The translations under genes and the position numbers were made by a program. From sequence record ON210137.1: 64,000 bases of DNA; one strand, written 5' to 3'. Of the stretch, positions 2,288-15,566 are shown one piece after another; positions within the stretch are counted from its first letter, which is position 1; the number at the start of each line of letters is the position of its first letter. A model generated the notes under the pieces. It did no database searches. It saw nothing but the letters and a program-made list of their open reading frames with translations, and was not told the origin of the DNA. The stretch is from Escherichia phage EC150.

Positions 2288-2544
2288 ATAAGGGACCGAT
2301 GGCGCCACTGGCCCTTGCCGCGCGGAAGCTTCGACAGGCCGTTAATGGGTCGCGGCCCGTGGTGTTAACACTAGACGATGCAAAGGCACTGGTAGAGCTA
2401 CTCGACGAGAACAACCGACGCAAGAATAGAGAGAACACATTAAAGTACCGCGTCACGCCAGCCGGACGCGAGTGTGAAAAGAAAGCTTACTTGCGGCGTA
2501 AGTTAAGGTCAGTCGGTCTACACGAAGAAGCCGACCAGATTTAA
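2284..2544 (+). CDS. hypothetical protein
   Basis: 86-codon ORF. Start is TTG 2284 or ATG 2299. Followed by terminator copy 2. Confidence 0.5.
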   Translation: MNKGPMAPLALAARKLRQAVNGSRPVVLTLDDAKALVELLDENNRRKNRENTLKYRVTPAGRECEKKAYLRRKLRSVGLHEEADQI

Positions 2545-2548
2545 TTCG

Positions 2549-2580
2549 AAAAGGTGAGCTAAATGCTTGCCTTTTTATTT
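2549..2580 (+). terminator. rho-independent terminator (copy 2 of the cassette)
   Basis: Same AAAAGGTGAGCTAAATGCTTGCCTTTTT hairpin as at 1036, followed by a T-tract. Confidence 0.6.
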
Positions 2581-2594
2581 GTCTGTATTATACT
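2567..2594 (+). promoter_or_regulatory. sigma70-like promoter
   Basis: TTGCCT (2567-2572), 16-nt spacer, TATACT (2589-2594). Gene start at 2623. Confidence 0.5.
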
Positions 2595-2622
2595 TACTTC
2601 ATCAAGCAAAGGAGAGGTTATT

Positions 2623-2928
2623 ATGAGTACCGAAGCTATGAAGAGCAAGTTGTTTGAGGTGATGCAGCCCGCTGTCGAGTGCGGAGCTATTCAGGAGTTC
2701 AAAGAGACGCAAGAAGGCGGTGAGCCAGTATTCTTCTTCAAGAACAAGAAAGGTGCGGCGGCTGCGGTGATGCTCTTGAAGAACAGCGACACGACCTTTA
2801 TCCTTTGCGCAGGCGGTTATGACCTTGTTGCCGATGATGCCTACATCACCTGTGCGACGGGTCTTAATCCTATGTTAACGTTTGAGCGTCGCGGCATTCG
2901 TGTTGCGACGTTTGGAGGCGGTTTATGA
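2623..2928 (+). CDS. hypothetical protein
   Basis: In-frame ATG 2623 (MSTEAMKSK...) preceded by AAAGGAGAGG. The upstream part of track ORF 2563 covers the promoter. Confidence 0.6.
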   Translation: MSTEAMKSKLFEVMQPAVECGAIQEFKETQEGGEPVFFFKNKKGAAAAVMLLKNSDTTFILCAGGYDLVADDAYITCATGLNPMLTFERRGIRVATFGGGL

Positions 2929-3110
2929 GCACCGAAGTCCATAACGCATCAGCACTGGTAAGCTTTTACCGAAACAAAGGCGTGTCGCTAGTTAAAACGC
3001 CGCAAGGCATGCTGTTCTTTGGCACGCGATTCCTTAAGGCTTCGGAGCGTGAAACGCTGTCTAAATTCGACCAGAAGACATTACACGCAGTTTGGAGAAG
3101 ACAGCAATGA
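2925..3110 (+). CDS. hypothetical protein
   Basis: 61-aa ORF with ATGA overlap to the upstream gene. Confidence 0.5.
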   Translation: MSTEVHNASALVSFYRNKGVSLVKTPQGMLFFGTRFLKASERETLSKFDQKTLHAVWRRQQ

Positions 3111-3307
3111 CATCAAATCTTAAGGCCCGTTTATTATTCATCAAGCCGCATGTGCCGTATAAGATTAGTAAGCGCACCTGGATTAACATTTACAACCGCA
3201 GCGGCGACCGTTGTTTGTACAAGGCAAAGCGGCGCAAGAAGGTATATTTAAAGGCTGTGATGTCGCAACCCGTCGATGCATTCAACATCGGCGAAAATGA
3301 ACTGTAA
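3107..3307 (+). CDS. hypothetical basic protein
   Basis: In-frame ATG 3107 (MTSNLKARL...) overlapping the upstream TGA. K/R-rich. Confidence 0.45.
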   Translation: MTSNLKARLLFIKPHVPYKISKRTWINIYNRSGDRCLYKAKRRKKVYLKAVMSQPVDAFNIGENEL

Positions 3308-3339
3308 ATCGGCTATCAAATTGAACTCGGAGTAAAGAA

Positions 3340-3849
3340 ATGAAAATCGAACAACTCGAAGCAGTATTGGAAATGGCTGTAAAGGCAGGCGCAATCAGAA
3401 GCTATAGCCGCGAGAAGTCGGATGACGCTGCGCACTTTTGTCGCAACTTCTATATCGTCGGCAACCTTAATGACCACTACACCATCGAGTGGTATACTAA
3501 TATGATGGCTCTTAAGTCGCGCACCATGGAGCTTTGGTGTGATGATGTCTGCTTATCCAACACCCATCCATCCTACGACGTTGCGTTAGCATTCTATTAC
3601 GGAAGCCGTCAACCTGTCGCCCACATCGGTGAGAAGTATGAGCACCTTAAGGCGCGACCAGAGGAATCAATGGACGGTTGGATTTATTGGGCTGGCGTCA
3701 ACAATCCTGTTCCTGGTAAGAAGGTCATGTTTAAATTGCGCTTCGGCTATGAATCTAAATCACCTGCTCTTTCAGATGATTTGAGATGGGAGATTGTTGA
3801 CGATGCTTATGCAACTGACATCATTGCTTATCGAGTCATGGAGGAATAA
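3340..3849 (+). CDS. hypothetical protein with a C-terminal W..G.NPVPGK...AYRV domain
   Basis: 169-aa ORF with GGAG 7 nt upstream. The C-terminal ~58 aa are colinear with the C-terminus of 5004..5429. Confidence 0.6.
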   Translation: MKIEQLEAVLEMAVKAGAIRSYSREKSDDAAHFCRNFYIVGNLNDHYTIEWYTNMMALKSRTMELWCDDVCLSNTHPSYDVALAFYYGSRQPVAHIGEKYEHLKARPEESMDGWIYWAGVNNPVPGKKVMFKLRFGYESKSPALSDDLRWEIVDDAYATDIIAYRVMEE

Positions 3850-4190
3850 TGGAAGAGCAAGAAGGCCGTGAGCTAACGTTCGACGAGCAAATGCAAGAGC
3901 TTCAGCGCACATCGTCGCTGCGCGGTAAGGTTGTTGACATCGAGGCGAGCGAATCCAACCTCACCCAGTGGCGGCTCAAGTGCACCAGCACAAGCAAGGA
4001 TATGTTAAGCTTCAAAGTCGGTCAGACTTATTTGCTTTATGAGGCAAAAGGACTTATTATTGATGGAAGGCAAATTGTCTTCACGGTAGTCAGCGGAATG
4101 CATTGGTTCGTGAAGCGTGATGTCGAGGGCCGTGACATGTTTGTCGCAGGATTTCCAGAAACAAGATTCCAATTGGAGAAGGTTAAATGA
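3849..4190 (+). CDS. hypothetical protein
   Basis: 113-aa ORF with TAATG overlap to the upstream gene. Confidence 0.55.
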   Translation: MEEQEGRELTFDEQMQELQRTSSLRGKVVDIEASESNLTQWRLKCTSTSKDMLSFKVGQTYLLYEAKGLIIDGRQIVFTVVSGMHWFVKRDVEGRDMFVAGFPETRFQLEKVK

Positions 4191-4519
4191 AATTGAAATG
4201 GTACGTGGACCCTGAGACGACAGGCTCATACAGGTCATTCCAACGTCGCGGCTGGCCGATTTGTTACAGCGGCAATCCCGATAAAGAAGACTGCGAGATG
4301 CTCGCCGCGATAGTAAGTCTTAATCATGACGGCTATGAAGGCCACTACGCGAGAGCAACCAACCTTCGGCTCAAGGTGCGCATCCATTTCAAGGTCGCAG
4401 GCGAGGACCGCACCGGACTCTCCAAAGAAGAGTTCAGCAGCATTGCCGAAGCAAAGGCATGGCTAAAGGCGTTCTACAAGGCCAATCCTAAATTTTATCC
4501 AACTAAGGGTGCATCATGA
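4187..4519 (+). CDS. hypothetical protein
   Basis: 110-aa ORF with ATGA overlap. Confidence 0.55.
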   Translation: MKLKWYVDPETTGSYRSFQRRGWPICYSGNPDKEDCEMLAAIVSLNHDGYEGHYARATNLRLKVRIHFKVAGEDRTGLSKEEFSSIAEAKAWLKAFYKANPKFYPTKGAS

Positions 4520-5007
4520 CTAACAAAACGCAACGCATCAATTTTGAAGGTAAAGAATACGAAATAGACGCTCGTGCAAGATTCGTTGCGCGCGATTCTA
4601 ACGGAACCATCTGGGCGTATGAGGGAAAGCCTGCATGGAACGATTGGTGCGGCCAGTGGGGATATGCAATTGGCGATTCACTTTGGTGTAAGCAAATTGG
4701 TGATGGAAAGATGTTCAAAGAGAATAAACCATCATCACGTGATTCATTGAAGGAAGTCGAATCAATCAAAATCCAAGACCAAGCGCCATCGACAGATAAC
4801 CAATACGCAGTCGGGCAACGTGACATCGAGCAACTCGACGAGGGCGGCTATTATACGCGCCACATCTATGCCATGACGCATGAAGGACTTTGCAGCAAGT
4901 CGGACATCGCCGCTGAACTGGCCCATCGTGACTTACAAATCGACCTTCTCAAGATAGAAGTGCAGAACTTACGAAACACCCTGTTAAATACTTGGAGCTT
5001 AAAATGA
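4516..5007 (+). CDS. hypothetical protein
   Basis: 163-aa ORF with ATGA overlap. Motif RFVARDSNGTIWAYEGKP resembles RYVAIDNNGLVHCYSERP in 1360..1683. Confidence 0.55.
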   Translation: MTNKTQRINFEGKEYEIDARARFVARDSNGTIWAYEGKPAWNDWCGQWGYAIGDSLWCKQIGDGKMFKENKPSSRDSLKEVESIKIQDQAPSTDNQYAVGQRDIEQLDEGGYYTRHIYAMTHEGLCSKSDIAAELAHRDLQIDLLKIEVQNLRNTLLNTWSLK

Positions 5008-5429
5008 TACAACGTTACGACCTGACATATGATGTGGTATCAGAAGATTGCTCCATCACTCCCGTTCCAGAGAGTCATGAAGGACGTTTTGTTGCATATG
5101 AGGACTATGCCGCGCTGGAAGCGAAATACAGTGAAGCGCAACGCGAGTTGGTTGCATTACGCTCACAGGTCCGTGATGCATCGGTGCTTGTTAAGCAGTT
5201 GCACGACGTTGTTGCTACTATAGGCGTGGATGATGATGCGCCGAAGGAGGAAGCGTGGACCGTGTGGCTTGGTGGCGCGAATCCGGTGCCTGGGAAGATG
5301 GTTGAGTTTGAATTACTCAACGGTTATAAATCAAAAGAGGCCGTCCCTTCGGATAATTTGAACTGGGGTGCAGTGGCAAGCCCGACTGGCGCAAAGATTG
5401 TTGCTTATCGGGTCGTTAAGGAGGGGTGA
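5004..5429 (+). CDS. hypothetical protein, C-terminal paralog of 3340..3849
   Basis: In-frame ATG 5004 (MIQRYDL...) overlapping the upstream TGA. C-terminus is WTVWLGGANPVPGKMVEFELLNGYKSK...KIVAYRV. Confidence 0.6.
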   Translation: MIQRYDLTYDVVSEDCSITPVPESHEGRFVAYEDYAALEAKYSEAQRELVALRSQVRDASVLVKQLHDVVATIGVDDDAPKEEAWTVWLGGANPVPGKMVEFELLNGYKSKEAVPSDNLNWGAVASPTGAKIVAYRVVKEG

Positions 5430-5962
5430 TGGGCGGCTTTTGGCGTAAAGCTAAATACTCTAAAGACTTGCATTACTTCTTGGATAATGAAGGCATAAGT
5501 ATATGTGGTAGGTACAGAAGGGATAATGAATCAGCGTCGCAAAGTAATAAGGCTGAATGGTTACTCAAGGAAGAATGCAAAGTTTGCCGCAAACGTTTTT
5601 GTGACAAAACTAGCATAACTGATTACATAAAGGAGCTTAGAAAAAGATGTAAAAGCCCGCAAGAGTTTGCCATAGCTCTTTGGGATGATCACCCTGAGTT
5701 GAGAAGCGAATGGTTAAAGACTGATGCAATCAATTATATCTTCAAATCGAAATACAGGACGACAGCAAGATATAAAATGGATGAAGCAGTAATTCAGAAG
5801 GTATTTTCTTATTGGAGGGATACAGTCGATATTGTGAAAATAAAGAAATACCAAAACGAAGTGCTGCTGGAATTGGAGAGGATTGGCTATAAAGTCACCA
5901 ATAAAATGATAAAAGAAGAAATAAAAAGGAGAACGGAAAAGGGACTGATGCCTAAGATATAG
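5426..5962 (+). CDS. hypothetical protein (AT-rich gene, Cys cluster CKVCRKRFC)
   Basis: 178-codon ORF. Start is GTG 5426 or ATG 5429, after GGAGG. Visibly more AT-rich than its neighbours. Confidence 0.5.
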   Translation: MMGGFWRKAKYSKDLHYFLDNEGISICGRYRRDNESASQSNKAEWLLKEECKVCRKRFCDKTSITDYIKELRKRCKSPQEFAIALWDDHPELRSEWLKTDAINYIFKSKYRTTARYKMDEAVIQKVFSYWRDTVDIVKIKKYQNEVLLELERIGYKVTNKMIKEEIKRRTEKGLMPKI

Positions 5963-6204
5963 TGAATAAACGAACACTGTTTACGTGTTTTGAAGAATGG
6001 AATGTGTGCAATGGGTCGCTTTATGCGGCCTTTTGTCGTTTGGGTCGTGTTTTGCGATGGAATAATTATGATGAGGTGTTTTATTTATTGATTGTGCGGA
6101 AATATTTAGAAATATATTTCATAGGTCGTGTCTATTGGTCCGTGGTGTTTGTTAGATTATATCTATGGATTGAAATTTTAGTGTCGTGAAACGTGGTGTT
6201 TGAA

Positions 6205-6660
6205 CACATTTGATACGCCTAAAATACGGCTAAAAATTAAGCGTATCATGGCTGCAGGCCGCGTCGTTCCTGGATTCTTCTTTTTAAAATTGGTACACCC
6301 TTACGTCATGATACGTCATGGTTTTTTATCCGTATCAGTGTACAGCCCTTGCCGCGCCTGGCTTGTACATTAATCTTACGGATGATACGGATAAAACTGG
6401 GCATCGTTATATATAAAACTCCAAAAATAAATAAACTCCATTTTAAAAACATTTATATTAATTTTTTTCATATCCTCATACTTATGTTAATTTATATATT
6501 TAACGTATCATCCGTAAGATATAAGTAAAAACAAAGACTTGCGGCAATACGGATGATACGTCATGATACGCTTCAACCAGCCAGCAGCGGCTAAGTCATT
6601 GATTTGCATAACAAGCGGCGAAAGGGATGGATTTCTTTTATACGTATCAAACAGTACACC
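6205..6660. repeat. iteron-like GGATGATACG arrays in opposed orientation around a 114-bp AT-rich core (module A)
   Basis: GATACG at 6212, 6310, 6384, 6555, 6565. CGTATC at 6242, 6331, 6504, 6653. Perfect 15-bp inverted repeat at 6375-6389 / 6504-6518. Homologous module at 22190-22460. Confidence 0.7.
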
Positions 6661-6717
6661 ACGCACCACGGTCCGCTATTCATTCAGTACTATGATTTGT
6701 GTACGTTTACAGCCAAT

Positions 6718-6746
6718 TTGAACATCAATCTGCACTTGAATATAAT
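6718..6746 (+). promoter_or_regulatory. sigma70-like promoter upstream of 6799..7272
   Basis: TTGAAC (6718-6723), 17-nt spacer, TATAAT (6741-6746). The two ATTTGCACTAT motifs lie in the predicted leader. Confidence 0.5.
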
Positions 6747-6798
6747 GTTCATTCATTGTATAATTCACACTATTAATTTGCACTATGGGATTTGCACT

Positions 6799-7272
6799 AT
6801 GAGTCAAGATTATGTAGCAATGCCTGAAGACTTTGAAGACCCGCGATTTGCAGAGCATAATCAGGCATTATTCGATGAGTTCATTGACCTTGTTATTCAG
6901 GGCCATGACATGCGCGCAGCTTTTGCACTAGTATTTGGCATGGAGGTTGCGACCGATAACTACACTGGCCAGCGAGTCCTCTGCACGCAACGCAATCCGT
7001 ACTACAAGATGCGCTACAAAAAGCGTATGGAAGAGATGCCATTGAAGGAATTGTGGAGCGTAAAGAGTTCCATCCACAATTTAGTGAAGCTTGTGCGTGA
7101 TCCAGAAGTCGCGGCGTCAGCCAAGCTTAATGCCATTCGTGAACTGAATATCATCTACGGCATCACGATGATTGATGAGAATGGCAATAGTAAAATGGGC
7201 CGTTCCATGGACGATTTCTACAAGGATTTTGGAGAGGCAGCCAAAGAGGGTGAGCAATTCTCCCGCCACTAG
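6799..7272 (+). CDS. putative DNA-binding protein, possibly a terminase small subunit
   Basis: In-frame ATG 6799 (MSQDYVAMPED...). The N-terminal extension from 6604 in the track covers the promoter. The layout (helix-rich N-terminus, then ...AKLNAIRELNIIYG) resembles TerS proteins, but this is a weak by-eye call. Confidence 0.45.
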   Translation: MSQDYVAMPEDFEDPRFAEHNQALFDEFIDLVIQGHDMRAAFALVFGMEVATDNYTGQRVLCTQRNPYYKMRYKKRMEEMPLKELWSVKSSIHNLVKLVRDPEVAASAKLNAIRELNIIYGITMIDENGNSKMGRSMDDFYKDFGEAAKEGEQFSRH

Positions 7273-7284
7273 CCAATTTGCACT

Positions 7285-7325
7285 ATAAAACGGCCCTAGA
7301 ACACATTTTCTCCACTTCTAGGGCC
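7285..7325 (-). terminator. rho-independent terminator for the leftward 8692->7387 operon
   Basis: 10-bp stem GGCCCTAGAA / TTCTAGGGCC (7292-7301 / 7316-7325), followed on the minus strand by GTTTTAT. Confidence 0.55.
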
Positions 7326-7386
7326 ATCGGTAATACGACGGGGAAGGTTACAACCATAAACGCGTTAGAAAGTGTATTATTATAAG

Positions 7387-7650
7387 TCATCTTTTAGTCA
7401 CTTTACGTAACAATTTACGACCTTCCGCCGTCCAGTCGAACGACTCCACCAGCAGATTTGCACTATAACCTAAGACGATGCGCCCTTTCTCGTTATCGAC
7501 CCGCCAACAAGTCTCGAATAGCATTCGATTTGCACTATTAACTATCGCCGCAACGCGCGCTGGGTAAGCGCAATTTGCACTATGGTCGTAAAGGGATAAG
7601 GTGCGACCACTTCCGATGGACAACGTAGCGATGAGAATAAGCGTATTCAT
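7387..7650 (-). CDS. hypothetical protein with signal-peptide-like N-terminus
   Basis: 87-aa ORF with GGTGG 3 nt before the ATG and a minus-strand terminator downstream. It carries three in-frame ATTTGCACTAT copies (read as Ser-Ala-Asn), so coding status is uncertain. Confidence 0.4.
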   Translation of the reverse strand: MNTLILIATLSIGSGRTLSLYDHSANCAYPARVAAIVNSANRMLFETCWRVDNEKGRIVLGYSANLLVESFDWTAEGRKLLRKVTKR

Positions 7651-7700
7651 AAGCCACCAATTTGCACTATGAAAAGCGACCCCGAAGGGCCGCCATTCGA

Positions 7701-8327
7701 TTAGATGATCTGGAATGTGTATGACTTGTTGCCGAACTCGAAGTTCAAGCGCCCAGCTTCCTTAAGCTTCATGCGGAAGCGAATGTGCTTGCTATCCGGT
7801 AATCCCAGCGCGATGAAAGCTACGCGGACCGATTTGAACTCGCCTACACCCTCGACCATAACGCCGTTACGGGTGAGACGCTTTTGCGCCACTTCCTTAT
7901 TATCCCAACTTTTTGCAATGCCTTCGCTATTCGAACGGCGATGGGAAGAAGTTCCATTTTGCACTACGCAATTTGCACTATCGTTTAGGCCGCTCTTAAC
8001 GAAGGCTTCATACTCTTCGTCGGTCATCGCGTCGAGTTCTTCCTGAGTCGGCTCAGACTTTTTAACGACCGCACGCGCCTTATGCGTTTTTACATCGCTG
8101 GGCACTTCCTCGCGCGGCTTCGCGTCGGGAATGGGCGATTCGTTGGACGGCTCATCGAGCGCGTTCAAGGACTCGATTAACGCGATTACGCGAGTCTCGG
8201 CGGTCCGGCGGTCCGCGAACTTTTTAATCGGCTTCGAACCGGAATTTGCGTTGTAAAATGCAACGAGGTCGGCGGTCTTAGTTGCGATAACGTCGCCGCT
8301 AGTCGAGAAGCGATTTAAGCTAACCAT
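7701..8327 (-). CDS. hypothetical protein
   Basis: 208-aa ORF with AGGAG 7 nt upstream. Acidic central linker. Contains motif copies at 7956 and 7971 (..DSANCVVQNG..). Confidence 0.6.
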   Translation of the reverse strand: MVSLNRFSTSGDVIATKTADLVAFYNANSGSKPIKKFADRRTAETRVIALIESLNALDEPSNESPIPDAKPREEVPSDVKTHKARAVVKKSEPTQEELDAMTDEEYEAFVKSGLNDSANCVVQNGTSSHRRSNSEGIAKSWDNKEVAQKRLTRNGVMVEGVGEFKSVRVAFIALGLPDSKHIRFRMKLKEAGRLNFEFGNKSYTFQII

Positions 8328-8407
8328 AATAAACTCCTATTTGTTAGGGCGCTAAGCGCGAAAGAATTTTATTAAAGCGCCGCGCACGACGCTCTTAAAA
8401 TCCTCTC

Positions 8408-8692
8408 TTACGCTTCGACGAGGGAGAAGGTTTCAAATTCTTCTTCGCCCATAACGAGTAAAATATTCCCGATTTCGACCGCTTCGAAGAAGTATCCGTT
8501 AACGTTTACTTCGAAGGCTTCGCGGTCCGATTCCGGTAACGCCGCGTAAAGTTTAAAAGCCTCGGCGACCGTTACCCCACCCGCTTCGATAGTTTGGTCT
8601 ACGTTCGCGGCGTAGACTTCGGATAAATTTTGTTTTACGCCGTAGTTCTCGACGATAGCGTTACGGATAGAAGAAACGTTAAGAATAGCCAT
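8408..8692 (-). CDS. small acidic protein, paralog of 9326..9616
   Basis: 94 aa. Shares S.IR.A.VE ... L..VY..NVD.TIE ... V.(V/I)NG..(F/Y)....EIG with 9326..9616. Has its own promoter and a conserved leader. Confidence 0.65.
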   Translation of the reverse strand: MAILNVSSIRNAIVENYGVKQNLSEVYAANVDQTIEAGGVTVAEAFKLYAALPESDREAFEVNVNGYFFEAVEIGNILLVMGEEEFETFSLVEA

Positions 8693-8760
8693 TTTAAACT
8701 CCTAGTTGGGAGAGGCGTTAACGACCTATTCGTTAACTCATCCCGTCCCGATATGAGTAC

Positions 8761-8788
8761 ATTATAATATAGTGTAGAAAAAAGTAAA
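8761..8788 (-). promoter_or_regulatory. sigma70-like promoter (copy 1 of 3)
   Basis: Minus strand reads GTGCTTTACTTTTTTCTACACTATAT-TATAAT. TTTACT (8788-8783), 16-nt spacer, TATAAT (8766-8761). Confidence 0.5.
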
Positions 8789-8832
8789 GCACTTTTTCGA
8801 TAAAAATGCGATAAATTATTTTATCTTTTTCC

Positions 8833-8860
8833 TTTACTTCTTCGTACACTCGCGTATACT
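8833..8860 (+). promoter_or_regulatory. sigma70-like promoter (copy 2 of 3)
   Basis: TTTACT (8833-8838), spacer TCTTCGTACACTCGCG (16 nt), TATACT (8855-8860). Same TTTACTTCTTCGTACACT core as at 9230. Confidence 0.5.
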
Positions 8861-8915
8861 TGTTTATATCGAGACGGGCGATGGCCTTCCTTCTACTAGC
8901 ATCGGGAGTTTTATT

Positions 8916-9218
8916 ATGACTACTTTAATCTCTTCTATCCTTACTTACGACGAAGACCGTTTAACCGTTCGTTCTCTTATCGCCGCCGTTAACGCGGAAC
9001 TAGAATCCACCATCATTAAGGTCCGCGCGGTCGCTTTCGTCGGCCTTTCCTTCGACGATATTAAGTATGCCGAACGTAGCGCCATCCGCTTCGCGAAGAC
9101 CGACGACGAAGCCGTTACCCTTATCGAGACGGTTACGCCGCGCGGCGAAGCGTTAATTATCGTCGAGTATATCGACGTAGAGGGCGATAAGGCTTATAAA
9201 TATTTTATCGCAAAATAA
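8916..9218 (+). CDS. hypothetical small acidic protein
   Basis: 100-aa ORF with GGGAG 8 nt upstream. CpG-rich codon usage like its neighbours. Confidence 0.6.
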   Translation: MTTLISSILTYDEDRLTVRSLIAAVNAELESTIIKVRAVAFVGLSFDDIKYAERSAIRFAKTDDEAVTLIETVTPRGEALIIVEYIDVEGDKAYKYFIAK

Positions 9219-9229
9219 CGAAAAAGTGC

Positions 9230-9258
9230 TTTACTTCTTCGTACACTAAGACTATAAT
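9230..9258 (+). promoter_or_regulatory. sigma70-like promoter (copy 3 of 3)
   Basis: TTTACT (9230-9235), 17-nt spacer, TATAAT (9253-9258). Preceded by CGAAAAAGTGC, as in the minus-strand copy. Confidence 0.55.
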
Positions 9259-9325
9259 GTTTTATATCGAGAGGGGAGAGGAAGCGAATAGGTCGCCTTC
9301 CCGCCCTCCCAACTAGGAGAATATT

Positions 9326-9616
9326 ATGATTACTTTATCCGCTATCCGTTCCGCTCGCGTCGAGACTTCCGAAAACTCTAACGTATTTGGCGAAACCTTA
9401 GAGAGCGTTTATCTCTCTAACGTCGACGCGACTATCGAATCTATTTATGAGCCGATCAACTTCCTCGACCTTTACAAGTATCGCGACGAGGACATCGTAT
9501 CATCCCGCGTAACTATCAACGGCTTCGTCTATACGATTACCGAAATCGGCGGCGAATATATCGCGGTCCCGCAACTCGGCGGCGAAGTAACTTATTTTAA
9601 AATCGTCTCCTTATAA
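9326..9616 (+). CDS. small acidic protein, paralog of 8408..8692
   Basis: 96 aa. Leader carries the CCCAACTAGGAG RBS context and the AATAGGT-loop hairpin (9280-9301), both shared with the 8408..8692 leader. Confidence 0.65.
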   Translation: MITLSAIRSARVETSENSNVFGETLESVYLSNVDATIESIYEPINFLDLYKYRDEDIVSSRVTINGFVYTITEIGGEYIAVPQLGGEVTYFKIVSL

Positions 9617-9635
9617 TACCCTTCCGTTACTAATA

Positions 9636-9662
9636 GGCCGCGCTTAGTCGCGGCTTTTCTTC
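9636..9662 (+). terminator. rho-independent terminator
   Basis: GCCGCG-CTTAGT-CGCGGC (9637-9654) followed by TTTTCTT. Confidence 0.65.
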
Positions 9663-9780
9663 GTCCCTATCCCGATGCGCGTCTACGCGAAAACTCCTTT
9701 ATCCTTCCCTTCGTCGTCGCATAATCTTCTTCGAGATGCTCCTTAGTTCGCATAACAGGTATTACGTTAAATGGAGAACA

Positions 9781-9854
9781 TCGCGTAAGTCCTTGTTTTA
9801 TATAGACACCTATATCGGACCGTTAGGGCGGGTCGCGTAAGTCGTTGTTTTATA
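9781..9854. repeat. 22-bp direct repeat TCGCGTAAGTC(C/G)TTGTTTTATA
   Basis: Copies at 9781-9802 and 9833-9854 (21/22 identical, 52-bp period) in non-coding DNA. Confidence 0.6.
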
Positions 9855-9979
9855 AAGGCGCAAAACTTTCCCTTCGTTCCGAACTAAAACGAGAAATGTG
9901 CCGACCCTTCGCCCGAAAATAGTACGTATGCGAAATTACATGCATCTCGAATAATCCCTCCCGATATTATCCTACACGC

Positions 9980-10042
9980 AATCATTCGCTTTCGAATCAT
10001 TATGCTTCATATTGTTATGCGTCGAATCATTCGCTTTCGAAT
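9980..10042. repeat. 18-bp direct repeat AATCATTCGCTTTCGAAT
   Basis: Exact copies at 9980-9997 and 10025-10042. Each contains the small inverted repeat ATTCG-N4-CGAAT. Confidence 0.6.
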
Positions 10043-10131
10043 TGTAACGCTGGAAACTGTAACGGCGATTGATTATTGCGTTCGTGTGGTTTTTATGGCA
10101 TGGGTCTTTTGGTGCGTTTTGGTACTTGATG

Positions 10132-10245
10132 AAATTTGCAGTACACTAATCAAAATACGACACATTTGGTCCACTAACTTTTCAAAGAAAAAGTCCTAGA
10201 CAGTACCGTACTATTTTGTACCCACAGGAAATTTGCAGTACACTC
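10132..10245. repeat. direct repeat GAAATTTGCAGTACACT
   Basis: Copies near 10131-10147 and 10229-10245. ATTTGCA is shared with the ATTTGCACTAT motif. Confidence 0.5.
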
Positions 10246-10255
10246 CTGCGCGGCA

Positions 10256-10286
10256 GGCAAAACAAAGGGCCGCACTAAGCGACCCA
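10256..10286 (-). terminator. rho-independent terminator for the leftward module
   Basis: Minus strand reads GGGTCGC-TTAGT-GCGGCCC followed by TTTGTTTTG, just downstream of the 10315 stop. Confidence 0.5.
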
Positions 10287-10314
10287 CGATTCACGGTTAA
10301 ATCAGCAACACCCA

Positions 10315-10695
10315 CTATTCGCTCTTATGGGCATCACCAAAGCCATCCGCAATCTGGCTGATCAATGATTCAATGGACACAGTTTTACCAATTGATCGAG
10401 CGGTAATAGCAAGCATATTATCAATCAAACCATGATTGGATGCGTATGGTTCAGGTTTTGAATCATCTTCAGGACAACCAAAAAGCTGGTCGCGCAAACT
10501 TTCGAGAGAACGCTCAACATTTTCCAACTTCTCTTCTAAATCGGATTGGCGACGTAAAACCCATGTCAAGTCACGGTTGCCAACTTCCAATCCATCAGAA
10601 TAGCAAGGTGGAGCGTCAATTTTGTTGCTGGAACCAAAAGCAGTGCCGCTGCCTTTAGTATAAGTATGGCTCATAGAATCATTTTTATTTGACAT
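10315..10695 (-). CDS. hypothetical protein
   Basis: 126-aa ORF. Last gene of the leftward 15388->10315 module. Confidence 0.55.
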   Translation of the reverse strand: MSNKNDSMSHTYTKGSGTAFGSSNKIDAPPCYSDGLEVGNRDLTWVLRRQSDLEEKLENVERSLESLRDQLFGCPEDDSKPEPYASNHGLIDNMLAITARSIGKTVSIESLISQIADGFGDAHKSE

Positions 10696-10769
10696 ATCAT
10701 TACCTTTAATATTTGGTGATTAACAATAACTATAATAAAGCCGCATAGCGCGGCATTCAAATCGATTTA

Positions 10770-11018
10770 TTAATTGTGACGATTGGATTCATCAATCGAT
10801 ACCAATTGTGCAGGGTTGCCGGATACCGTTGCGCCGATGATTCCCATTTGAGAGAAAAATTCTGAATAAACCTCTTTCCAGTACTTGCGCGCTGCTTTCT
10901 GGGCTTGACCTTTGCGCTTATAACTTTTGCCTTGAAAGATGAAGCGGTCTTTTGGAGCGTAATACTCCACCACACCTTCCAGCCATTGTAAGAATGCTAC
11001 TGATTCATTTTTATTCAT
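10770..11018 (-). CDS. hypothetical protein
   Basis: 82-aa ORF. Preferred over the overlapping 72-aa frame at 10757..10975. Confidence 0.55.
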   Translation of the reverse strand: MNKNESVAFLQWLEGVVEYYAPKDRFIFQGKSYKRKGQAQKAARKYWKEVYSEFFSQMGIIGATVSGNPAQLVSIDESNRHN

Positions 11019-11025
11019 GTTAACC

Positions 11026-11421
11026 TCAATATTTTAATAAGAAAGCGCCCAACCAACTTTCCTCAATCTCGCGGCCAGTAGCCACACGGTCGGTCTTTGA
11101 TATGGGTCTGGATTCGCCACAGGGCAACCCGTCCTGTAGTTGTGTACTATTGCCAATCCTCACCAGAACCTTTCCATCAGGGTCGATATAAGCGCGACAA
11201 CCCATGATTTCGAGTCGTTGTAGACACTGGCGAATCGTTTTCAGCTTCTCACCGGACCTGATAGAGCGCGGTCGCGACCGCTGACCGTTCTTATTCACTT
11301 TGCGCTTTGCAACCGGAATATCATTGATGCGCTGCGACTTGGGTCGATAATAGGCTTCTTCGCCAGGAGTTGCACCTGGCGTCAGTTCGCGTTTGAGATC
11401 CTTTTCAATATCGATGATCAT
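11026..11421 (-). CDS. hypothetical basic protein
   Basis: In-frame ATG 11421 (MIIDIEKDL...). The upstream Cys-rich part of the track ORF overlaps a better small ORF in another frame. Confidence 0.5.
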   Translation of the reverse strand: MIIDIEKDLKRELTPGATPGEEAYYRPKSQRINDIPVAKRKVNKNGQRSRPRSIRSGEKLKTIRQCLQRLEIMGCRAYIDPDGKVLVRIGNSTQLQDGLPCGESRPISKTDRVATGREIEESWLGAFLLKY

Positions 11422-11423
11422 GA

Positions 11424-11522
11424 TTATGCCGCTGCAGCGTAAACAATTGCATAAGCAATTCCAAACAGCGCAGCAATACATACCGTGCCCCAAAATGCAA
11501 AGCGTCGTGACTCTTTATCCAT
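11424..11522 (-). CDS. possible 32-aa single-pass membrane peptide
   Basis: MDKESRRFAFWGTVCIAALFGIAYAIVYAAAA. Its ATG directly follows the stop of 11523..11756 (TAAATG). Too short for the ORF track. Confidence 0.35.
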   Translation of the reverse strand: MDKESRRFAFWGTVCIAALFGIAYAIVYAAAA

Positions 11523-11756
11523 TTATTTATCCCCCAACGTCCATGAATTAAACACTAATTTTGCCATTTCATCTTGTGAAACCACATTATAGTGCTTAGG
11601 CAAATCGCTTTCTGATAATACCTTCTGGGCTTCTTCTTTTGTCTCAAAGAGAGGGATGAAAAAGACCAAGCGGTTATCTTCAGGATCAATGCCGCAGATG
11701 ACGTATTTTGGCAATGCTTTTGCTTTTTGAGTCTTATCAATATCTTCAAATTTCAT
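11523..11756 (-). CDS. hypothetical protein
   Basis: In-frame ATG 11756 (MKFEDIDK...) with GAGGTG 4-5 nt upstream. Confidence 0.55.
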   Translation of the reverse strand: MKFEDIDKTQKAKALPKYVICGIDPEDNRLVFFIPLFETKEEAQKVLSESDLPKHYNVVSQDEMAKLVFNSWTLGDK

Positions 11757-11802
11757 AATACACCTCACTTGTTAACGTATAATGAGTATAACTTAATCGA
11801 GC

Positions 11803-11830
11803 ATAAAGTAAAGGCGCTTTTCAGCGCCTT
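11803..11830 (-). terminator. stem-loop / weak terminator after the tail-fibre gene
   Basis: 8-bp stem AAGGCGCT / AGCGCCTT (11811-11830), then TACTTTAT on the minus strand. Confidence 0.45.
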
Positions 11831-11837
11831 GAGTGAA

Positions 11838-14153
11838 TTATTTTGCTGATTTCAGCACGGCTATCTCTGCCTTGAGTTCATCAATCTGATCCATCAATGC
11901 GAGAATAGCCTCGTGGTGCAATGCCGCTGCAACGCCGTAAGTGTCAACTGACTTGATATCTTCGACAACAGTCCCATCCTTGAGTTCCGTGTTTGAATAT
12001 TTCAAAGTTTTTACTGCGTCAGGAAATACACCTTCTACATCTTGAGCTATAAATCCGATGCCATTCGGTTTCTCTGACTTATCAAGGCGCTCCCAAGTCA
12101 CACCCTTGATCAATCTCATCTTTCCTAACGGGTCGGAAATCCTTTGAATATTTGTTTTGACCCTCTCATCAGACGTGCTGACCCAGTTCCCTGCAGTAGC
12201 AGTACCATCAGGCATAAATTTGAAATCTGCTGCAGCGCCTTGCCCATTGTTTATGGATATTTGCGCGTGCATCAAATCAGTTCCAGTACCTCGAACGCCT
12301 CCGAATGTATAGCTGCCAGCATACCAATCCCCTGAAAAATATGATACATACCCAGGCGTTGACTGGTTGAAGTTTATCATCCTCATACCGTTGCTTTCAT
12401 ACGCTGAAACGCCTACTGAATTCAACGGTTGCACAACAAGGTCTTTTGGTCTGAGATATGCATTAACATTCAGCGCCCCGTCTGTCCTTTCCGTACTAAT
12501 TTGATTTATGGAGTTAGGGAAATAAAATGTGCCATCTTGCGCAAACTTCCATTCTTGCACCCCATTAGATATCACAGCACCTTGTTCAGACGTTAATCCA
12601 TCAATCTTACCGTATGCTTGCAAGAATGCTTGATACGCAATGTTGGTGCCAATTTTATATTCAGATTTTACACTGCCGCCACTGACAAGCGTTCCGGTTG
12701 CAGGTTTTACTGCGTCACCATTAATAACGCTCCAAGTCGTATTCGCAGCAGCAAATCCACCCGATGCACGAATCACCCAAACGCCTACAAAGTTACGACC
12801 CATTATTTCACTGTTTGAACGGCCATAAACCGGACTTACTCGCGAAGCATCAAAACTCACCCTAATAACACCATTACCAGTTACCGGTTCTGGTGACAAT
12901 GGTGTTTCTACCTGACCCGGTACAATAGCACCCGTCTGCCCGTAGGCGACGACGCCACCAATATCCCCGTAAATGTTTGGTGCAGCTGAATCAAACACAA
13001 CACCATCAGCGTTGGAGTTTGCGGTGCCATTTCCTGCGCCGTCACCTCGTCCATAAAGAGCGGCTAATGAACCGACTTGAACGCCGTTTTTGTCGGGCAC
13101 ACGGAAAGTCGTTGAGCCATTACCAAGAGAATACTTTCCGCGCTTTGTTGGGTCCGCAAGCCAATCCGCATCAGCAATAGGAGTCAGCATTTGAGCATAT
13201 GCCCAAAGCTCAGGCCAGTCTGCGCGGTTAAGCAATTGCCCGTCTGCAACAACTTCATATGGCTGGATGTAAGCACGGCTATCACGAAGATGAAAATCAC
13301 CAACACCATAGTTCATTACACCGTTCATGTTCGGTCCAACGGTGCCAGTGTTGATAAGGTTTTCAACCCAACGTTTAGTCGCAGCATCATAATCATTCAC
13401 AGGGTCACCAGCAAGCGGAGTTGGGCCTGTCGGTCGAATATTCAACCAAGCCTGCGCATTATCCCCTGATCCTGTGCCGCCCATGGAAGTGGGCACGATA
13501 TTTTGATCAGCGACTTGTCCGAATCCAAAAGCAGACTTCATGCCCTGAATAGTACTCTGCCCTGTGCCACCGTTTGCCACTGGTACTACATCAAGTTCGC
13601 TATAAACCTTTTTCCAAGGTGACCAAAAGTCGCCATTAAATACCCTGTTGTATTCAGGGCCAACCGTTGCTGTGTATTTTTGTGAACAAGCATTTGCTGA
13701 AATTTGGATTACTTCCAATACTCCAGACGATAAGGTTGGGTAGTTCAAAGCAGGTGATGCTGATAGACTGTTCGGCTGGTAATATTGGCCAAACCATGAA
13801 CCAGTCAAAGCATTGAGATTTATTCCGTTAGGAATCTCTCCAAAGTTTCGGACAGTACCCGTCAAAGTCGCAGCAGTAGTTCGAATGGAAAGCATGTCGC
13901 CAGCCGCCCATGCACGCGCTGCAGTTCCTTCCTGTGCACGCTGCACGGTCAGGACGTTTCCAACAACGGCTGTTACTGTGACGATTTCGAATTGGAGGCC
14001 TGTCGCAGCGTCTACGATTGTCGCCACTACACGCTCGTTTGCAGCCAAGGTCGGAAATCCCGACCCTGAGCGAATTGTGATTGTGGTGTCTGAAGTCGTC
14101 GTTGGCTGAGCGAGCGCGACCTCAAAGTTGTTTTTGAATATTAGCCTTGGCAT
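11838..14153 (-). CDS. tail fibre/spike protein with C-terminal intramolecular chaperone (peptidase S74-like) domain
   Basis: 771 aa, Gly/Ser/Thr/Asn-rich body. The C-terminus ...SDERVKTNI..L.KGVTWERLD...GIGFIAQDVEGVFPDAV...coiled coil is the signature of endosialidase-type auto-cleaving chaperone domains. Confidence 0.85.
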   Translation of the reverse strand: MPRLIFKNNFEVALAQPTTTSDTTITIRSGSGFPTLAANERVVATIVDAATGLQFEIVTVTAVVGNVLTVQRAQEGTAARAWAAGDMLSIRTTAATLTGTVRNFGEIPNGINLNALTGSWFGQYYQPNSLSASPALNYPTLSSGVLEVIQISANACSQKYTATVGPEYNRVFNGDFWSPWKKVYSELDVVPVANGGTGQSTIQGMKSAFGFGQVADQNIVPTSMGGTGSGDNAQAWLNIRPTGPTPLAGDPVNDYDAATKRWVENLINTGTVGPNMNGVMNYGVGDFHLRDSRAYIQPYEVVADGQLLNRADWPELWAYAQMLTPIADADWLADPTKRGKYSLGNGSTTFRVPDKNGVQVGSLAALYGRGDGAGNGTANSNADGVVFDSAAPNIYGDIGGVVAYGQTGAIVPGQVETPLSPEPVTGNGVIRVSFDASRVSPVYGRSNSEIMGRNFVGVWVIRASGGFAAANTTWSVINGDAVKPATGTLVSGGSVKSEYKIGTNIAYQAFLQAYGKIDGLTSEQGAVISNGVQEWKFAQDGTFYFPNSINQISTERTDGALNVNAYLRPKDLVVQPLNSVGVSAYESNGMRMINFNQSTPGYVSYFSGDWYAGSYTFGGVRGTGTDLMHAQISINNGQGAAADFKFMPDGTATAGNWVSTSDERVKTNIQRISDPLGKMRLIKGVTWERLDKSEKPNGIGFIAQDVEGVFPDAVKTLKYSNTELKDGTVVEDIKSVDTYGVAAALHHEAILALMDQIDELKAEIAVLKSAK

Positions 14154-14191
14154 TTTACGGTCCTCGTTTTGTCGACAACCGTATTATAACC

Positions 14192-14533
14192 TTAATTTCT
14201 TTTGAGAGGAATATGGCGGTTGCTGTCATTATTTGGTTTAATAATGAGCATAAAAACGATTAGAAAGATGATGGCTGATATACTTAATTCAATCAGCGCG
14301 GCTTGAGATATAGATTGATCTTCATGATACTGCTTTTGCATTTCTGCTTTCTTCTGAGCGCAAACTTCAGGTGATATGTAATCGCCTTTTGAGTTGCCAT
14401 AATAAATCTCGCCATTCTCAGAAATAAGCCTGCCGCAAATATCCGTGTCAGCCTTTGCGCTTGACATCATAATAACGGTGCCGATGATAGCGGCAATTGT
14501 CCAGATTAGCAGTTGTGATAAGGTATTATTCAT
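14192..14533 (-). CDS. membrane protein (N- and C-terminal TM segments)
   Basis: 113 aa. Hydrophobic LLIWTIAAIIGTVIMM at the N-terminus and AIIFLIVFMLII near the C-terminus. AAGAGG RBS. Confidence 0.55.
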   Translation of the reverse strand: MNNTLSQLLIWTIAAIIGTVIMMSSAKADTDICGRLISENGEIYYGNSKGDYISPEVCAQKKAEMQKQYHEDQSISQAALIELSISAIIFLIVFMLIIKPNNDSNRHIPLKRN

Positions 14534-14576
14534 GATAACCTCTTTAATTCCCTTCCCATATCGGGAAGGGTGAATA

Positions 14577-14732
14577 TTATTTTACGCGAAAGAATAGGCG
14601 CGTGCCACACAGCGAGTCCCAACGGCCCTCACCATCCCATATCGACCCAACACCAGCGGTGATTGGGCCAGCAGAATTGGCGGCATTGGCCCAGGCTAGA
14701 CGTTTCAACTTCCAACTGCACCAACGATTCAC
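14577..14732 (-). CDS. possible 51-aa Trp/Cys-rich peptide (GTG start)
   Basis: GTG 14732 overlaps the upstream stop (ATGTGA). Reads (M)NRWCSWKLKRLAWANAANSAGPITAGVGSIWDGEGRWDSLCGTRLFFRVK. It fills an otherwise empty 195-bp gap. Speculative. Confidence 0.2.
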   Translation of the reverse strand: MNRWCSWKLKRLAWANAANSAGPITAGVGSIWDGEGRWDSLCGTRLFFRVK

Positions 14733-14962
14733 ATTTCATCTCCAGATTGCAAAACAAGTCCCGCATAGATGATTGCTAAAGCTAAAGGCGCACCACTTCC
14801 CGCCTCTCTGTTCTCTTTAATCTGAAGAGCATCCTTAAGGAATTGCAACTGAACGTTGAATTCATTTTCAATTCCAAGCACTCCAGACAATCCTTTTACA
14901 GAATCTGCATATGCCTTGTCTAGCACTTCTTTTGGTACTGTTAAAGTCAATTCATTTGCCAT
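14729..14962 (-). CDS. hypothetical protein
   Basis: In-frame ATG 14962 (MANELTLTV...) overlapping the end of the upstream gene by 11 nt. Confidence 0.5.
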   Translation of the reverse strand: MANELTLTVPKEVLDKAYADSVKGLSGVLGIENEFNVQLQFLKDALQIKENREAGSGAPLALAIIYAGLVLQSGDEM

Positions 14963-15173
14963 TTTCTTTCCACTCCACGAATGTACTGCCACTTGTTTCT
15001 CTATTTAGCAGGTATCTGCCGCGCATTCCATGAAGGCTGAACTCAACCGTCGATGGATTAGATTTTGAAAGCCACATCACTTGACCGTCGAATGGTCCGC
15101 CGATGCATGTGTATTTGGCCTTTGGCTCACTCCTTTTGGGTCGCTTTGCCCGCTCTTTGATTGATAGTCTCAT
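14952..15173 (-). CDS. hypothetical basic protein
   Basis: 73-aa ORF whose start overlaps the upstream stop. Confidence 0.5.
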   Translation of the reverse strand: MRLSIKERAKRPKRSEPKAKYTCIGGPFDGQVMWLSKSNPSTVEFSLHGMRGRYLLNRETSGSTFVEWKENGK

Positions 15174-15388
15174 CAGTCTTCACCTTGAGATTCAAGACAA
15201 GTAAGGACAAGCCACGTCATCGGAAGAATCAAAACCAGAGAAATAAGTGACCAAATGGACCAACACAAGATGACAGACTTGAATGTGTGAACGTCGCCAA
15301 ACGTAGCAGTGAAACAAAATCCCATTACGAAAGCAATCGCTGTGGAGTGATTATCAATGGCTTTGATGGCGCGGTCGATGAGTTTCAT
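15173..15388 (-). CDS. small membrane protein (2 TM segments; holin-like topology)
   Basis: 71 aa. TM segments are AIAFVMGFCFTATF and ILCWSIWSLISLVLILPMTWLVL. GGAGG RBS. First gene after promoter 15415-15442. Confidence 0.55.
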   Translation of the reverse strand: MKLIDRAIKAIDNHSTAIAFVMGFCFTATFGDVHTFKSVILCWSIWSLISLVLILPMTWLVLTCLESQGED

Positions 15389-15414
15389 ATTACCTCCGGT
15401 TTTGAGTTAATATG

Positions 15415-15442
15415 ATTATAATGCAGAATTTCAGAAAGGCAA
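15415..15442 (-). promoter_or_regulatory. sigma70-like promoter for the leftward module
   Basis: Minus strand: TTGCCT (15442-15437), 16-nt spacer, TATAAT (15420-15415). Confidence 0.5.
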
Positions 15443-15462
15443 ACTTTTTGTGAATTTAAATT

Positions 15463-15525: not shown

Positions 15526-15529
15526 CATA

Positions 15530-15558: not shown

Positions 15559-15566
15559 ACTATAAT
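15537..15566 (+). promoter_or_regulatory. sigma70-like promoter for terL
   Basis: TTGATA (15537-15542), 18-nt spacer, TATAAT (15561-15566). The -10 abuts ATG 15567, which argues that the real terL start is ATG 15600. Confidence 0.45.

Follow-up and report, generated by a model that had tools for sequence, protein, structure and literature searches.

A TG/CA desert in the terminal repeat of Escherichia phage EC150 and its possible role as a pre-early cassette

The stretch of DNA analysed here, 64,000 nucleotides of Escherichia phage EC150 (sequence record ON210137.1; the whole stretch is called the window), is that of a Wifcevirus-type E. coli myophage, and our subject is a cassette of small genes at about 8 to 10 kb. 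A sequence-only reading had described the DNA at 7.7-10.0 kb as a compositionally distinct, CpG-rich island with a self-contained divergent gene cassette. Both parts of this description stand. The cassette consists of a minus-strand unit with g94 and g208 and a plus-strand unit with g100 and g96, and in the core of the island the dinucleotide odds ratio (rho) is 2.12 for CpG and only 0.31 for TG and its complement CA. The excess of CpG is secondary; the loss of TG/CA is the primary signal, and we call the region the TG/CA desert. The features are collected in Table 1.

The proteins g94, g100 and g96 are acidic, with isoelectric points (pI) of 4.05-4.67. Homologues of g208 are present in Pbunavirus, Serratia, Pantoea, Xanthomonas and Vibrio phages, and the protein is 100% identical to its counterpart in phage EC150; it had no match in PDB and Pfam. 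Searches of the cassette proteins against Pfam, PHROG and PADLOC gave no assignment besides phrog_4730. According to the predicted promoters, the small genes in their inversely oriented units would be transcribed by the host polymerase. All three promoters have an A/T-rich TTTCGATA upstream element. These elements (8797-8830 and 9200-9230; L011 ~6510-6546; L021 ~225-254) are of the TTTCGATAAA(T/A) type and resemble the high-affinity motif of H-NS, TCGATAAATT. The promoters of the cassette are kept across genera, and the window and Pantoea phage PA1 agree in them almost base for base. That the island has its own promoters and terminators on both sides, as had been proposed, is true in part: the hairpin behind g96 is confirmed and relatives annotate a terminator that matches 7292-7327, but the promoters are internal and divergent and do not flank the island. 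A search of the non-coding tail of the desert against Rfam found no known RNA family.

Composition of the desert

Outside the core, rho for TG/CA is 1.19 ± 0.05 with a minimum of 1.06, and rho for CG is 1.09. The ratio for TA rises from 0.66 outside to 1.22 in the core. The enrichment of both CG and TA follows from this loss, since a single transition, in the first or in the second base, turns TG or CA into CG or TA; the sum of the pyrimidine-purine steps is about the same in the desert as elsewhere, and the G+C content is unaltered (0.469 in the core versus 0.461). Over ~8200-9800 there are 4-8 TG and CA per 200 bp, elsewhere ~30. All eight trinucleotides that contain TG or CA are depleted, 2- to 20-fold. 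CTG/CAG is down ~20-fold (3 seen in the core versus ~60 expected) and is missing altogether between 8098 and 9756, a gap of 1,658 bp in a window with a mean spacing of 31 bp and a next-longest gap of 294 bp.

The CpG counts given by the sequence-only reading for five stretches (8, 7, 9, 1 and 0) are all exact. In 1-kb windows across 8001-10000 rho for CpG is 2.1-2.2, which places the island far outside the window's own distribution: the value is 1.12 for the whole window and 1.09 ± 0.09 in 1.9-kb windows outside the region, with a maximum of 1.31. TCGA occurs 12 times per kb in the region and 4.3 times per kb elsewhere, a difference of about threefold. The excess of CpG is also present in non-coding DNA, as had been stated. 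Its extent has to be corrected, since the island is real but its core covers ~8050-9950, with a shoulder at ~7300-8050 and a sharp right edge at ~9950-10000. Selection on CpG-containing sites, one of the two explanations offered, gets the direction wrong: TG/CA has two escape routes, CpG and TpA.

The selection acts on the duplex. Sense TG and sense CA are both scarce in the plus- and in the minus-strand genes of the cassette, and in the unidirectional cassettes of Myosmarvirus, described below, sense TG stands at 0.24-0.28 and sense CA at 0.15-0.18. A single RNA-level motif, for example the ACA of MazF, is ruled out by this depletion of both. Intergenic DNA of the desert has ~10 TG/CA per 200 bp versus ~30. 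When 17 cassette proteins were rewritten with the background codon usage of the phages, 24-63 TG/CA were predicted per gene; 5-17 are observed, ~5-9 standard deviations lower. Furthermore, the third base of a codon depends on the codon that follows. Before a G-initial codon, pyrimidine-ending codons have C 464 times and T 31 times (background 1132:1561), and before an A-initial codon they have T 219 times and C 33 times (background 664:1073). Hence the CpGs at NNC|GNN codon junctions seen in the sequence-only reading; it is mainly at these junctions that CpG arises in the desert. The claim that the bias goes beyond plain codon usage is borne out by the depleted intergenic DNA, by both strands and by the context-dependent third base, and on the same grounds of strand symmetry, intergenic depletion and dependence on the next codon, codon usage or tRNA adaptation is ruled out as the cause. 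The proteins are affected as well. Cys, Trp, His, Met and Gln cannot be encoded without TG or CA, and they account for 4.4% of the cassette residues versus 10.2% in the background. Promoters within the desert have TTTACT as their -35 hexamer, whereas TTGACT occurs immediately beyond it. This is long-lasting purifying selection on the duplex against the TG/CA step.

Some other stretches of the window deserve mention. Between 21501 and 23000 the G+C content is low (0.39-0.40) and rho for CpG is moderately raised (1.33-1.59); the sole 300-bp window outside the island with a low TG+CA count (21) starts at 22201, and long gaps without CTG/CAG are also found at 22173-22388 and 22388-22660. A stretch of ~1.5 kb at 59001-60750 has a rho for GpC of 1.7-1.94 versus ~1.3 elsewhere, with normal CpG. 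Several hexamers are common outside the repeat described in the next section: AAGCTT (HindIII) occurs 52 times, CAGCAG (EcoP15I) 69 times and CTGCAG 31 times in the 64 kb, and GGATCC is absent. Hence restriction sites in general are not avoided in the bulk of the genome.

The terminal repeat and its relatives

By homology, the desert lies within a direct terminal repeat (DTR). The record of phage WFH begins at window position 6440, and the DTR of phage Mansfield (1-3673; 3,673 bp, PhageTerm; PMC6753283) aligns to 6440-10111. The desert is the right-hand ~2 kb of this repeat and ends ~0.16 kb short of its edge. Judged from this alignment, the end of the DNA in the virion would read terminus, ~0.16 kb of ordinary sequence, desert. 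In the Serratia phages MyoSmar (DTR 1-3559) and MTx (DTR 1-3566, record in opposite orientation) the desert is at ~200-2000 and ~1500-3400, respectively, and the geometry therefore matches that of Wifcevirus; in Mansfield, MyoSmar and MTx the desert is 0.17-0.2 kb away from the DTR edge. The end segment of MyoSmar is ~0.2 kb long, and its terminal 200 bp, read inward, are 40% C and 29% A. A 200-bp composition test of the Mansfield end, representing Wifcevirus, revealed no strand bias like that of MyoSmar.

With 28 phage records, among them those of RCIP0363, AV128, Mansfield and Bas98-101 of the BASEL collection, the region 7200-10400 shares 93-97% identity. It is present in all 28, and a relative that lacks the island was not found among them. 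At least 80% of the region is held in one place by 25 records, and two of the three with less than 80% are broken by the record end. Pseudomonas Pbunaviruses are distant kin of Wifcevirus-type phages (PMC11990801). Beyond Wifcevirus, deserts were found in the Serratia Myosmarviruses Hera, MTx and MyoSmar, in Erwinia phage TropicalSun together with a related metagenomic contig, and in Pantoea phage PA1 (Kylevirus). They measure ~1.8-2.2 kb, with rho values of 0.26-0.36 for TG/CA, ~2.0 for CG and 1.1-1.24 for TA, and contain a paralogue of the g208 family and small acidic proteins tied to g94 and g96 by profile. Matches of the g94/g96 profile are restricted to the desert-bearing phage groups. 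There is no desert in the fetched ~90% of the genomes of Pseudomonas phage 14-1 and Salmonella phage PCSE1, which rules out a property of the whole Pbunavirus-like group; nor is there one in the examined parts of Xanthomonas phage XcP1 (7.8 kb) and Vibrio phage JSF39, in T7 (minimum of rho 0.76) or in the first 30 kb of T5, including its first-step-transfer (FST) region (0.93).

The gene content of the cassette is not fixed. Gene g94 is absent in ECML-117 and RCIP0319 and is replaced by a non-homologous gene for an acidic protein of 104 amino acids in Bas98 and WFH, and ECML-117, FEC19 and F13 have an extra gene for a protein of 69 amino acids. These alternative segments are equally purged, with rho values of 0.16-0.46 (0.16-0.27 for the replacement of g94, 0.46 for the 69-amino-acid gene). 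The g96 orthologue of the WFH clade has only 63.5% protein identity and 5 TG/CA in 291 nt. Within the genus the cassette forms a hotspot for the gain and loss of genes: g94 may be present, absent or replaced, one metagenomic contig lacks g100, and F13 (L009 5000-6300) has a partial duplicate of it. The extra 69-amino-acid protein is basic, is annotated as 'transcriptional regulator' and is encoded 3' of g96.

Polymorphism in the core was analysed with rare alleles after strict alignment filtering. Alleles that create TG/CA outnumber those that destroy it 31:14, a ratio of 2.2:1 versus 5.3:1 for neutrality. Selection per site looks weak, comparable to codon bias, yet it has kept the desert over a divergence that saturates the DNA.

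The other half of the DTR has features of its own. Variants of the (A)TTTGCACTA repeat, ATTTGCAGTA, are found at 10134 and 10231, just beyond the DTR. In PA1 the same 9-mer array has seven copies in reverse orientation (L011 7648-8310), beyond the g208 homologue; the array is thus common to Wifcevirus and PA1 though their shared proteins are only ~45-72% identical. It could consist of terminase-binding sites, of an injection stop signal, for which it is a candidate by its position, or of phage-specific promoters. Myosmarvirus has no TTTGCACTA array and instead has three AAGCATGCT palindromes (L021 2472, 2501 and 2566). In the non-desert half of their DTR, all four desert-bearing genera have clustered Chi octamers, GCTGGTGG, that share one orientation (1, 4, 4, 4, 5 and 7 copies). 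Outside this cluster there is one Chi in the rest of the ~68-kb MyoSmar genome and none in the other fetched DNA of Hera and TropicalSun. As predicted from their orientation, the over-represented octamers would face RecBCD entering from the non-desert end. This clustering suggests that the phages may use host Chi to blunt RecBCD or to drive recombination of the repeats.

Table 1 Features of the TG/CA desert and of the terminal repeat (positions are those of the window unless a record handle is given; promoters are predictions).
Feature	Position	Strand	Remarks
TG/CA desert core, CpG/TpA-rich island	8050..9950	.	rho TG/CA 0.31, CG 2.12, TA 1.22
Shoulder with partial depletion	7300..8049	.	over g87 and C-terminal half of g208; TG+CA 17-26, CpG 15-20 per 200 bp
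g87, small basic protein	7387..7650	-	in MyoSmar and PA1; not found in fetched ~90% of 14-1 and PCSE1
g208, conserved basic protein, phrog_4730 (PHROG without functional annotation)	7701..8327	-	PHROG match 1.8e-88; N-terminal half within desert
g94, small acidic orphan protein	8408..8692	-	pI 4.05
Sigma70-type promoter for g94 and g208, predicted	8761..8788	-	TTTACT-16-TATAAT
Sigma70-type promoter for g100, predicted	8833..8860	+	TTTACT-16-TATACT; A/T-rich TTTCGATA upstream element
g100, small acidic orphan protein	8916..9218	+	zero Cys, Trp, His, Gln; Met at start only
Sigma70-type promoter for g96, predicted	9230..9258	+	TTTACT-17-TATAAT; differs little in Pantoea phage PA1
g96, small acidic orphan protein, paralogue of g94	9326..9616	+	
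Intrinsic terminator-like hairpin closing plus-strand unit	9635..9656	+	annotated in Mansfield, WFH
Non-coding desert tail, ~300 bp	9657..9950	.	direct repeat CGCGTAAGTC(C/G)TTGTTTTATA at ~9783 and ~9834; TG+CA ~10 per 200 bp
Direct terminal repeat, ~3.67 kb	6440..10111	.	by homology; edges from relatives
End segment, ~0.16 kb, desert to DTR edge	9951..10111	.	ordinary composition; plus strand TG-rich (TG 11, CA 3 in 10001-10100)
Small terminase subunit (Mansfield annotation), phrog_4783	6799..7272	+	non-desert half of DTR
Array of 10 co-oriented (A)TTTGCACTA repeats	6776..7980	+	non-desert half of DTR
Chi octamer GCTGGTGG	7446..7453	-	readable by RecBCD entering from non-desert DTR end
Chi sites elsewhere	L021 2107, 2164, 2338, 2447; L022 179, 930, 997, 1276		
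Chi clusters elsewhere	L010 12313-13409; L018 6793-7298; L011 7322-8894		

What may maintain the desert

The phages Bas98-101 resist EcoKI, EcoCFT_I, EcoRI, EcoRV and EcoCFT_II and are restricted by EcoP1_I; their resistance to EcoRI, EcoRV and EcoCFT_II, despite 19, 4 and 92 sites, comes with 'no known genome protection mechanism' (PMC11990801). This is a puzzle, as Wifceviruses resist five restriction-modification (RM) systems and are yet abolished by EcoP1, though EcoCFT_II has as many sites. Our site counts for the five known recognition sites reproduce the published figures exactly, and the site of EcoCFT_II was inferred as CACAG/CTGTG, the sole 5-mer that gives 92 sites in Bas99 and 81 in T7. 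The DTR of the window has no site for EcoRI, EcoRV, EcoCFT_I or EcoAI and no CACAG (5.2 expected, P(0)=0.005), but it has one EcoKI site and 3+3 AGACC. Nine of ten Wifcevirus DTRs, the window included, have 0 EcoRI, 0 EcoRV, 0 EcoCFT_I, 0-1 CACAG and 0-1 EcoKI sites and 4-7 AGACC in both orientations; the tenth, of phage F13, carries a duplication and has 2 EcoKI, 2 EcoRV and 12 AGACC sites, and this phage was not phenotyped. Type I enzymes require two sites, and T5, whose pre-early genes form two inverse units within a duplicated terminal repeat, resists type I, II and III RM if the sites are absent from its FST region (PMC10644984). That sensitivity is set by the sites inside such a region is seen here as a correlation with the published plating data, with one informative contrast.

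By analogy with T5, the island may quite possibly be a pre-early cassette that works like the FST region against defence, with selection against TG/CA, although we hold this tentatively. The desert end would enter the cell first, and from three strong sigma70-type promoters the host RNA polymerase would read four very small genes, of which three encode acidic orphans. The desert would then be the DNA that is exposed to DNA-targeting defences of the host before counter-measures shield the rest, and the cassette proteins would be these counter-measures. Whether a restriction system stops the phage would be decided by the sequence of the desert and not by the other 64 kb. The purge of TG/CA would delete every recognition site that contains TG or CA, and evasion of defence would be the selecting force. 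Besides CACAG, the sites removed would include CAGCAG and CAGAG and the half-sites GTGC, GTCA and TGCT.

Several observations speak against this assignment. In a stretch of 3.7 kb, chance would already give zeros for EcoRI, EcoRV, EcoKI and EcoAI, so that CACAG versus AGACC is the only informative contrast, and EcoP1 might merely escape an unrelated anti-restriction factor. Searches of folds and libraries with the cassette proteins found no recognisable anti-defence fold or family, and no protective Chi faces the desert end. A general trait of first-entering coliphage DNA is ruled out by the values for T5 and T7 given above. Among the rare alleles, 29 of 76 transitions make TG/CA where a fraction of 0.40 is expected, which is near-neutral. 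Furthermore, the purge gives no general safety against random specificities (for 5-bp sites in both orientations, 0.525 versus 0.60) and no gain for 6-bp, palindromic or type-I-like sites, and of the enterobacterial type I sites that we listed ~55% hold TG/CA, close to the proportion expected at random. A generic 'vocabulary reduction' against random restriction specificities is ruled out by this comparison of site presence.

Since there is no general protection and type I sites are not enriched, the agent must have a specific need for TG/CA; otherwise the purge would serve some other function of the repeat. It is conceivable, but on the whole doubtful, that the desert records the action of a DNA-targeting activity, so far unrecognised, with the TG/CA step or very short words that contain it, such as CAG, as its target. 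Such an activity would be a widespread enterobacterial defence, or a nuclease or poison of phage take-over, acting at the very start of infection while only the terminal ~2 kb are inside the cell. Four genera would have answered it by writing pre-early genes, promoters and proteins without TG or CA.

Another role of the repeat could be in recombination or replication, but we regard this as unlikely. The desert would be single-stranded DNA that is coated with RecA after the encounter of RecBCD with Chi, or a zone free of primase starts, and the long 3' tail would pair the two repeats in order to circularise or concatemerise the genome. Chi is co-oriented in every desert-bearing genus, the desert is what RecBCD reaches next from the non-desert end, and no phage recombinase is annotated. 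DnaG of E. coli starts at CTG, and in each of the three deserts analysed for trinucleotides CTG/CAG ranks first or close to first in depletion (0.05-0.17). However, all eight trinucleotides with TG or CA are depleted and not CTG alone, only one strand would be single-stranded and yet both are purged equally, and the preference of RecA for GT-rich DNA predicts the opposite. Decoy microhomology is a minor matter, as E. coli DNA contains 8-mers of the desert just 13% less often than it does other 8-mers of the phage; with an effect of this size, avoidance of 8-nt microhomology with the host chromosome was rejected as an explanation.

We consider it quite unlikely that the desert belongs to the termination of packaging, as the last ~2 kb to be packaged, purged of lookalikes of a TG/CA-rich terminase signal (TTTGCACTA arrays, end segment). 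The location would fit: the desert adjoins the DTR edge in two genera, the gene for the small terminase subunit lies within the same repeat, and the desert-free phages 14-1 and PCSE1 have no reported DTR. TTTGCA(C/G)TA repeats stand on both flanks of the desert and are kept in PA1, and in the end segment of ~0.1-0.2 kb the window has one strand rich in TG, and MyoSmar is rich in C and A. On the other hand, avoidance of a 10-bp motif needs neither a dinucleotide purge nor a change of amino acids, Myosmarvirus is without the TTTGCACTA array, and the Wifcevirus end is without strand bias in the 200-bp test.

The scale of the constraint, a strand-symmetric dinucleotide step, is that of intercalators and of indirect readout. 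This would point to avoidance of an agent that reads the TG/CA step, be it an intercalator or other DNA poison, cleavage by gyrase, which has a preference for TG, or host proteins that use the deformable CA/TG step; we think this improbable. No specific agent fits. The exchange of TTGACT just outside for TTTACT inside the desert is in line with it. Daunorubicin stops T5-like phages precisely at pre-early expression after first-step transfer (PMC13250531), but these data are from T5-like phages and not from Wifceviruses. On the other hand, anthracyclines are reported to favour (A/T)CG and (A/T)GC triplets, of which the desert has an excess. The phages also encode a conserved VOC protein of bleomycin-resistance-like type beside an SDR reductase, and the two might detoxify a DNA-damaging small molecule; the VOC gene is, however, also present in Xanthomonas phages, and 7.8 kb of XcP1 have no desert. 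Between Wifcevirus, Myosmarvirus and Kylevirus the VOC and SDR genes (L002 38888-39439 and 39634-40317, both on the minus strand) share 67-72% identity; the ~90% of the 14-1 and PCSE1 genomes that was fetched did not yield them. The name VOC (glyoxalase/bleomycin-resistance-like) comes from annotations of relatives only, with no match in Pfam. In a screen for co-occurrence, VOC/SDR as a lineage-specific enzyme proved a weak link, since VOC is also found in Xanthomonas, Xylella and Aeromonas phages.

Very improbable is a base modification in the context of TG or CA that would protect the bulk of the genome, with the cassette kept free of modifiable sites. It would account for the resistance to EcoRI, EcoRV and EcoCFT_II despite their 19, 4 and 92 sites (PMC11990801), and the phage has a nucleotide-metabolism module with ThyX, a PNK/HAD-like protein, MazG, SDR and VOC. 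But EcoRI and EcoRV sites hold no TG/CA and are still uncut in vivo, desert-free relatives have ThyX, PNK and MazG too, many independent short- and long-read assemblies are without anomaly, and the host polymerase transcribes the heavily modified DNA of other phages.

Finally, a horizontally acquired cassette that keeps the composition of its donor, which the sequence-only reading had named alongside selection on CpG, or a local mutational bias is hardly credible and largely refuted already, although the region stands out clearly in composition from the genome around it and, as in a decaying relic, rare alleles that give rise to TG/CA outnumber those that abolish it (31 versus 14). Presence is not patchy and composition does not decay: the region is in all 28 records, at the same DTR position genus-wide and in three related genera with the same bias, and replacements and orthologues diverged to 63.5% or past detection by BLAST hold a rho of 0.16-0.36. 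The bias of a relic would have decayed in such replaced or diverged genes, and a relic of horizontal transfer is therefore rejected. The ratio of 2.2:1 for creation over destruction also falls short of the neutral 5.3:1, and a single mutational process cannot lift CG and TA with the G+C content steady (0.469 versus 0.461). We know of no genome with a rho for TG/CA near 0.3.

Whichever agent is responsible, the constraint is strong enough to set context-dependent codons, the -35 hexamer and the amino-acid content, and it is kept across four genera. If the FST-like reading is true, the BASEL puzzle would be solved, because only the DTR would count, with EcoP1 sites and without effective sites for the other five systems, and the logic of first-step transfer in T5 would extend to an unrelated group of myoviruses that are kin of the therapeutic Pbunaviruses. 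The acidic orphan proteins of the cassette would move to the front of the search for new broad factors against restriction or RecBCD. The sliding-window rho for TG/CA may serve as a simple signature to find such pre-early modules in other phages.

Comparison with known systems

In the literature on Wifcevirus, Myosmarvirus and Kylevirus and on dinucleotide depletion in terminal repeats we found no description of the desert, and to our knowledge the purge of a dinucleotide step has no precedent. The nearest model is the FST region of T5. Each lies at one end of the genome, inside a long direct terminal repeat, with small genes of host-takeover type in two inverse units behind host-polymerase promoters, which in the cassette are predicted ones, and in both cases resistance to type I, II and III systems goes along with many sites in the bulk of the genome, and sensitivity follows the sites in the terminal region. 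There are differences. The cassette has ~2 kb and 3-4 tiny genes, T5 ~9 kb and ~17 genes; homologues of T5 A1, A2 and dmp were not found in the cassette in searches of Pfam, PHROG and PADLOC; and T5-like phages resist EcoP1, Wifceviruses do not. Two-step transfer is a feature of T5, and for the cassette it would be a prediction of the analogy. In the FST region (1-9100, compared with 10219-30000) TG/CA is unaltered at 0.93, but CG is 1.34 versus 0.74-0.84; further biases are seen in GC (1.58 versus 1.05-1.10) and GA/TC (0.76 versus ~1.0).

Restriction-site avoidance, as in the near-absence of EcoRI and EcoRV sites from T7-like phages, is similar in that short words are counter-selected, and the desert is found where the DNA would be exposed first. 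Classical avoidance, however, concerns 4-6-bp words genome-wide, whereas the desert is a 3- to 6-fold loss of one step, in 2 kb only, by which even the amino acids are reshaped, and the depletion of all eight TG/CA trinucleotides is not what avoidance of specific 4-6-bp words would leave. Leading regions of conjugative plasmids and the gene 0.3 (Ocr) region of T7 are, as the cassette would be, the first DNA to enter, and their anti-defence genes are small, often acidic in product and switched on at once. Neither homology nor a similar fold was detected between the cassette proteins and Ocr, ArdA or further anti-restriction proteins that are known, and T7 is without a compositional desert. The local shift between CpG and TpG/CpA is reminiscent of vertebrate CpG islands and of CpG-depleted viruses that evade ZAP, but there the cause is methylation-driven decay of CpG, the lack of such decay, or selection against CpG; in the phage the rest of the genome is not depleted in CpG (1.09), and in the desert TpA is raised and TG/CA removed, a change in the opposite direction. 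In its role the cassette would, by analogy, be an FST-like pre-early region, a known type of system in a new form.

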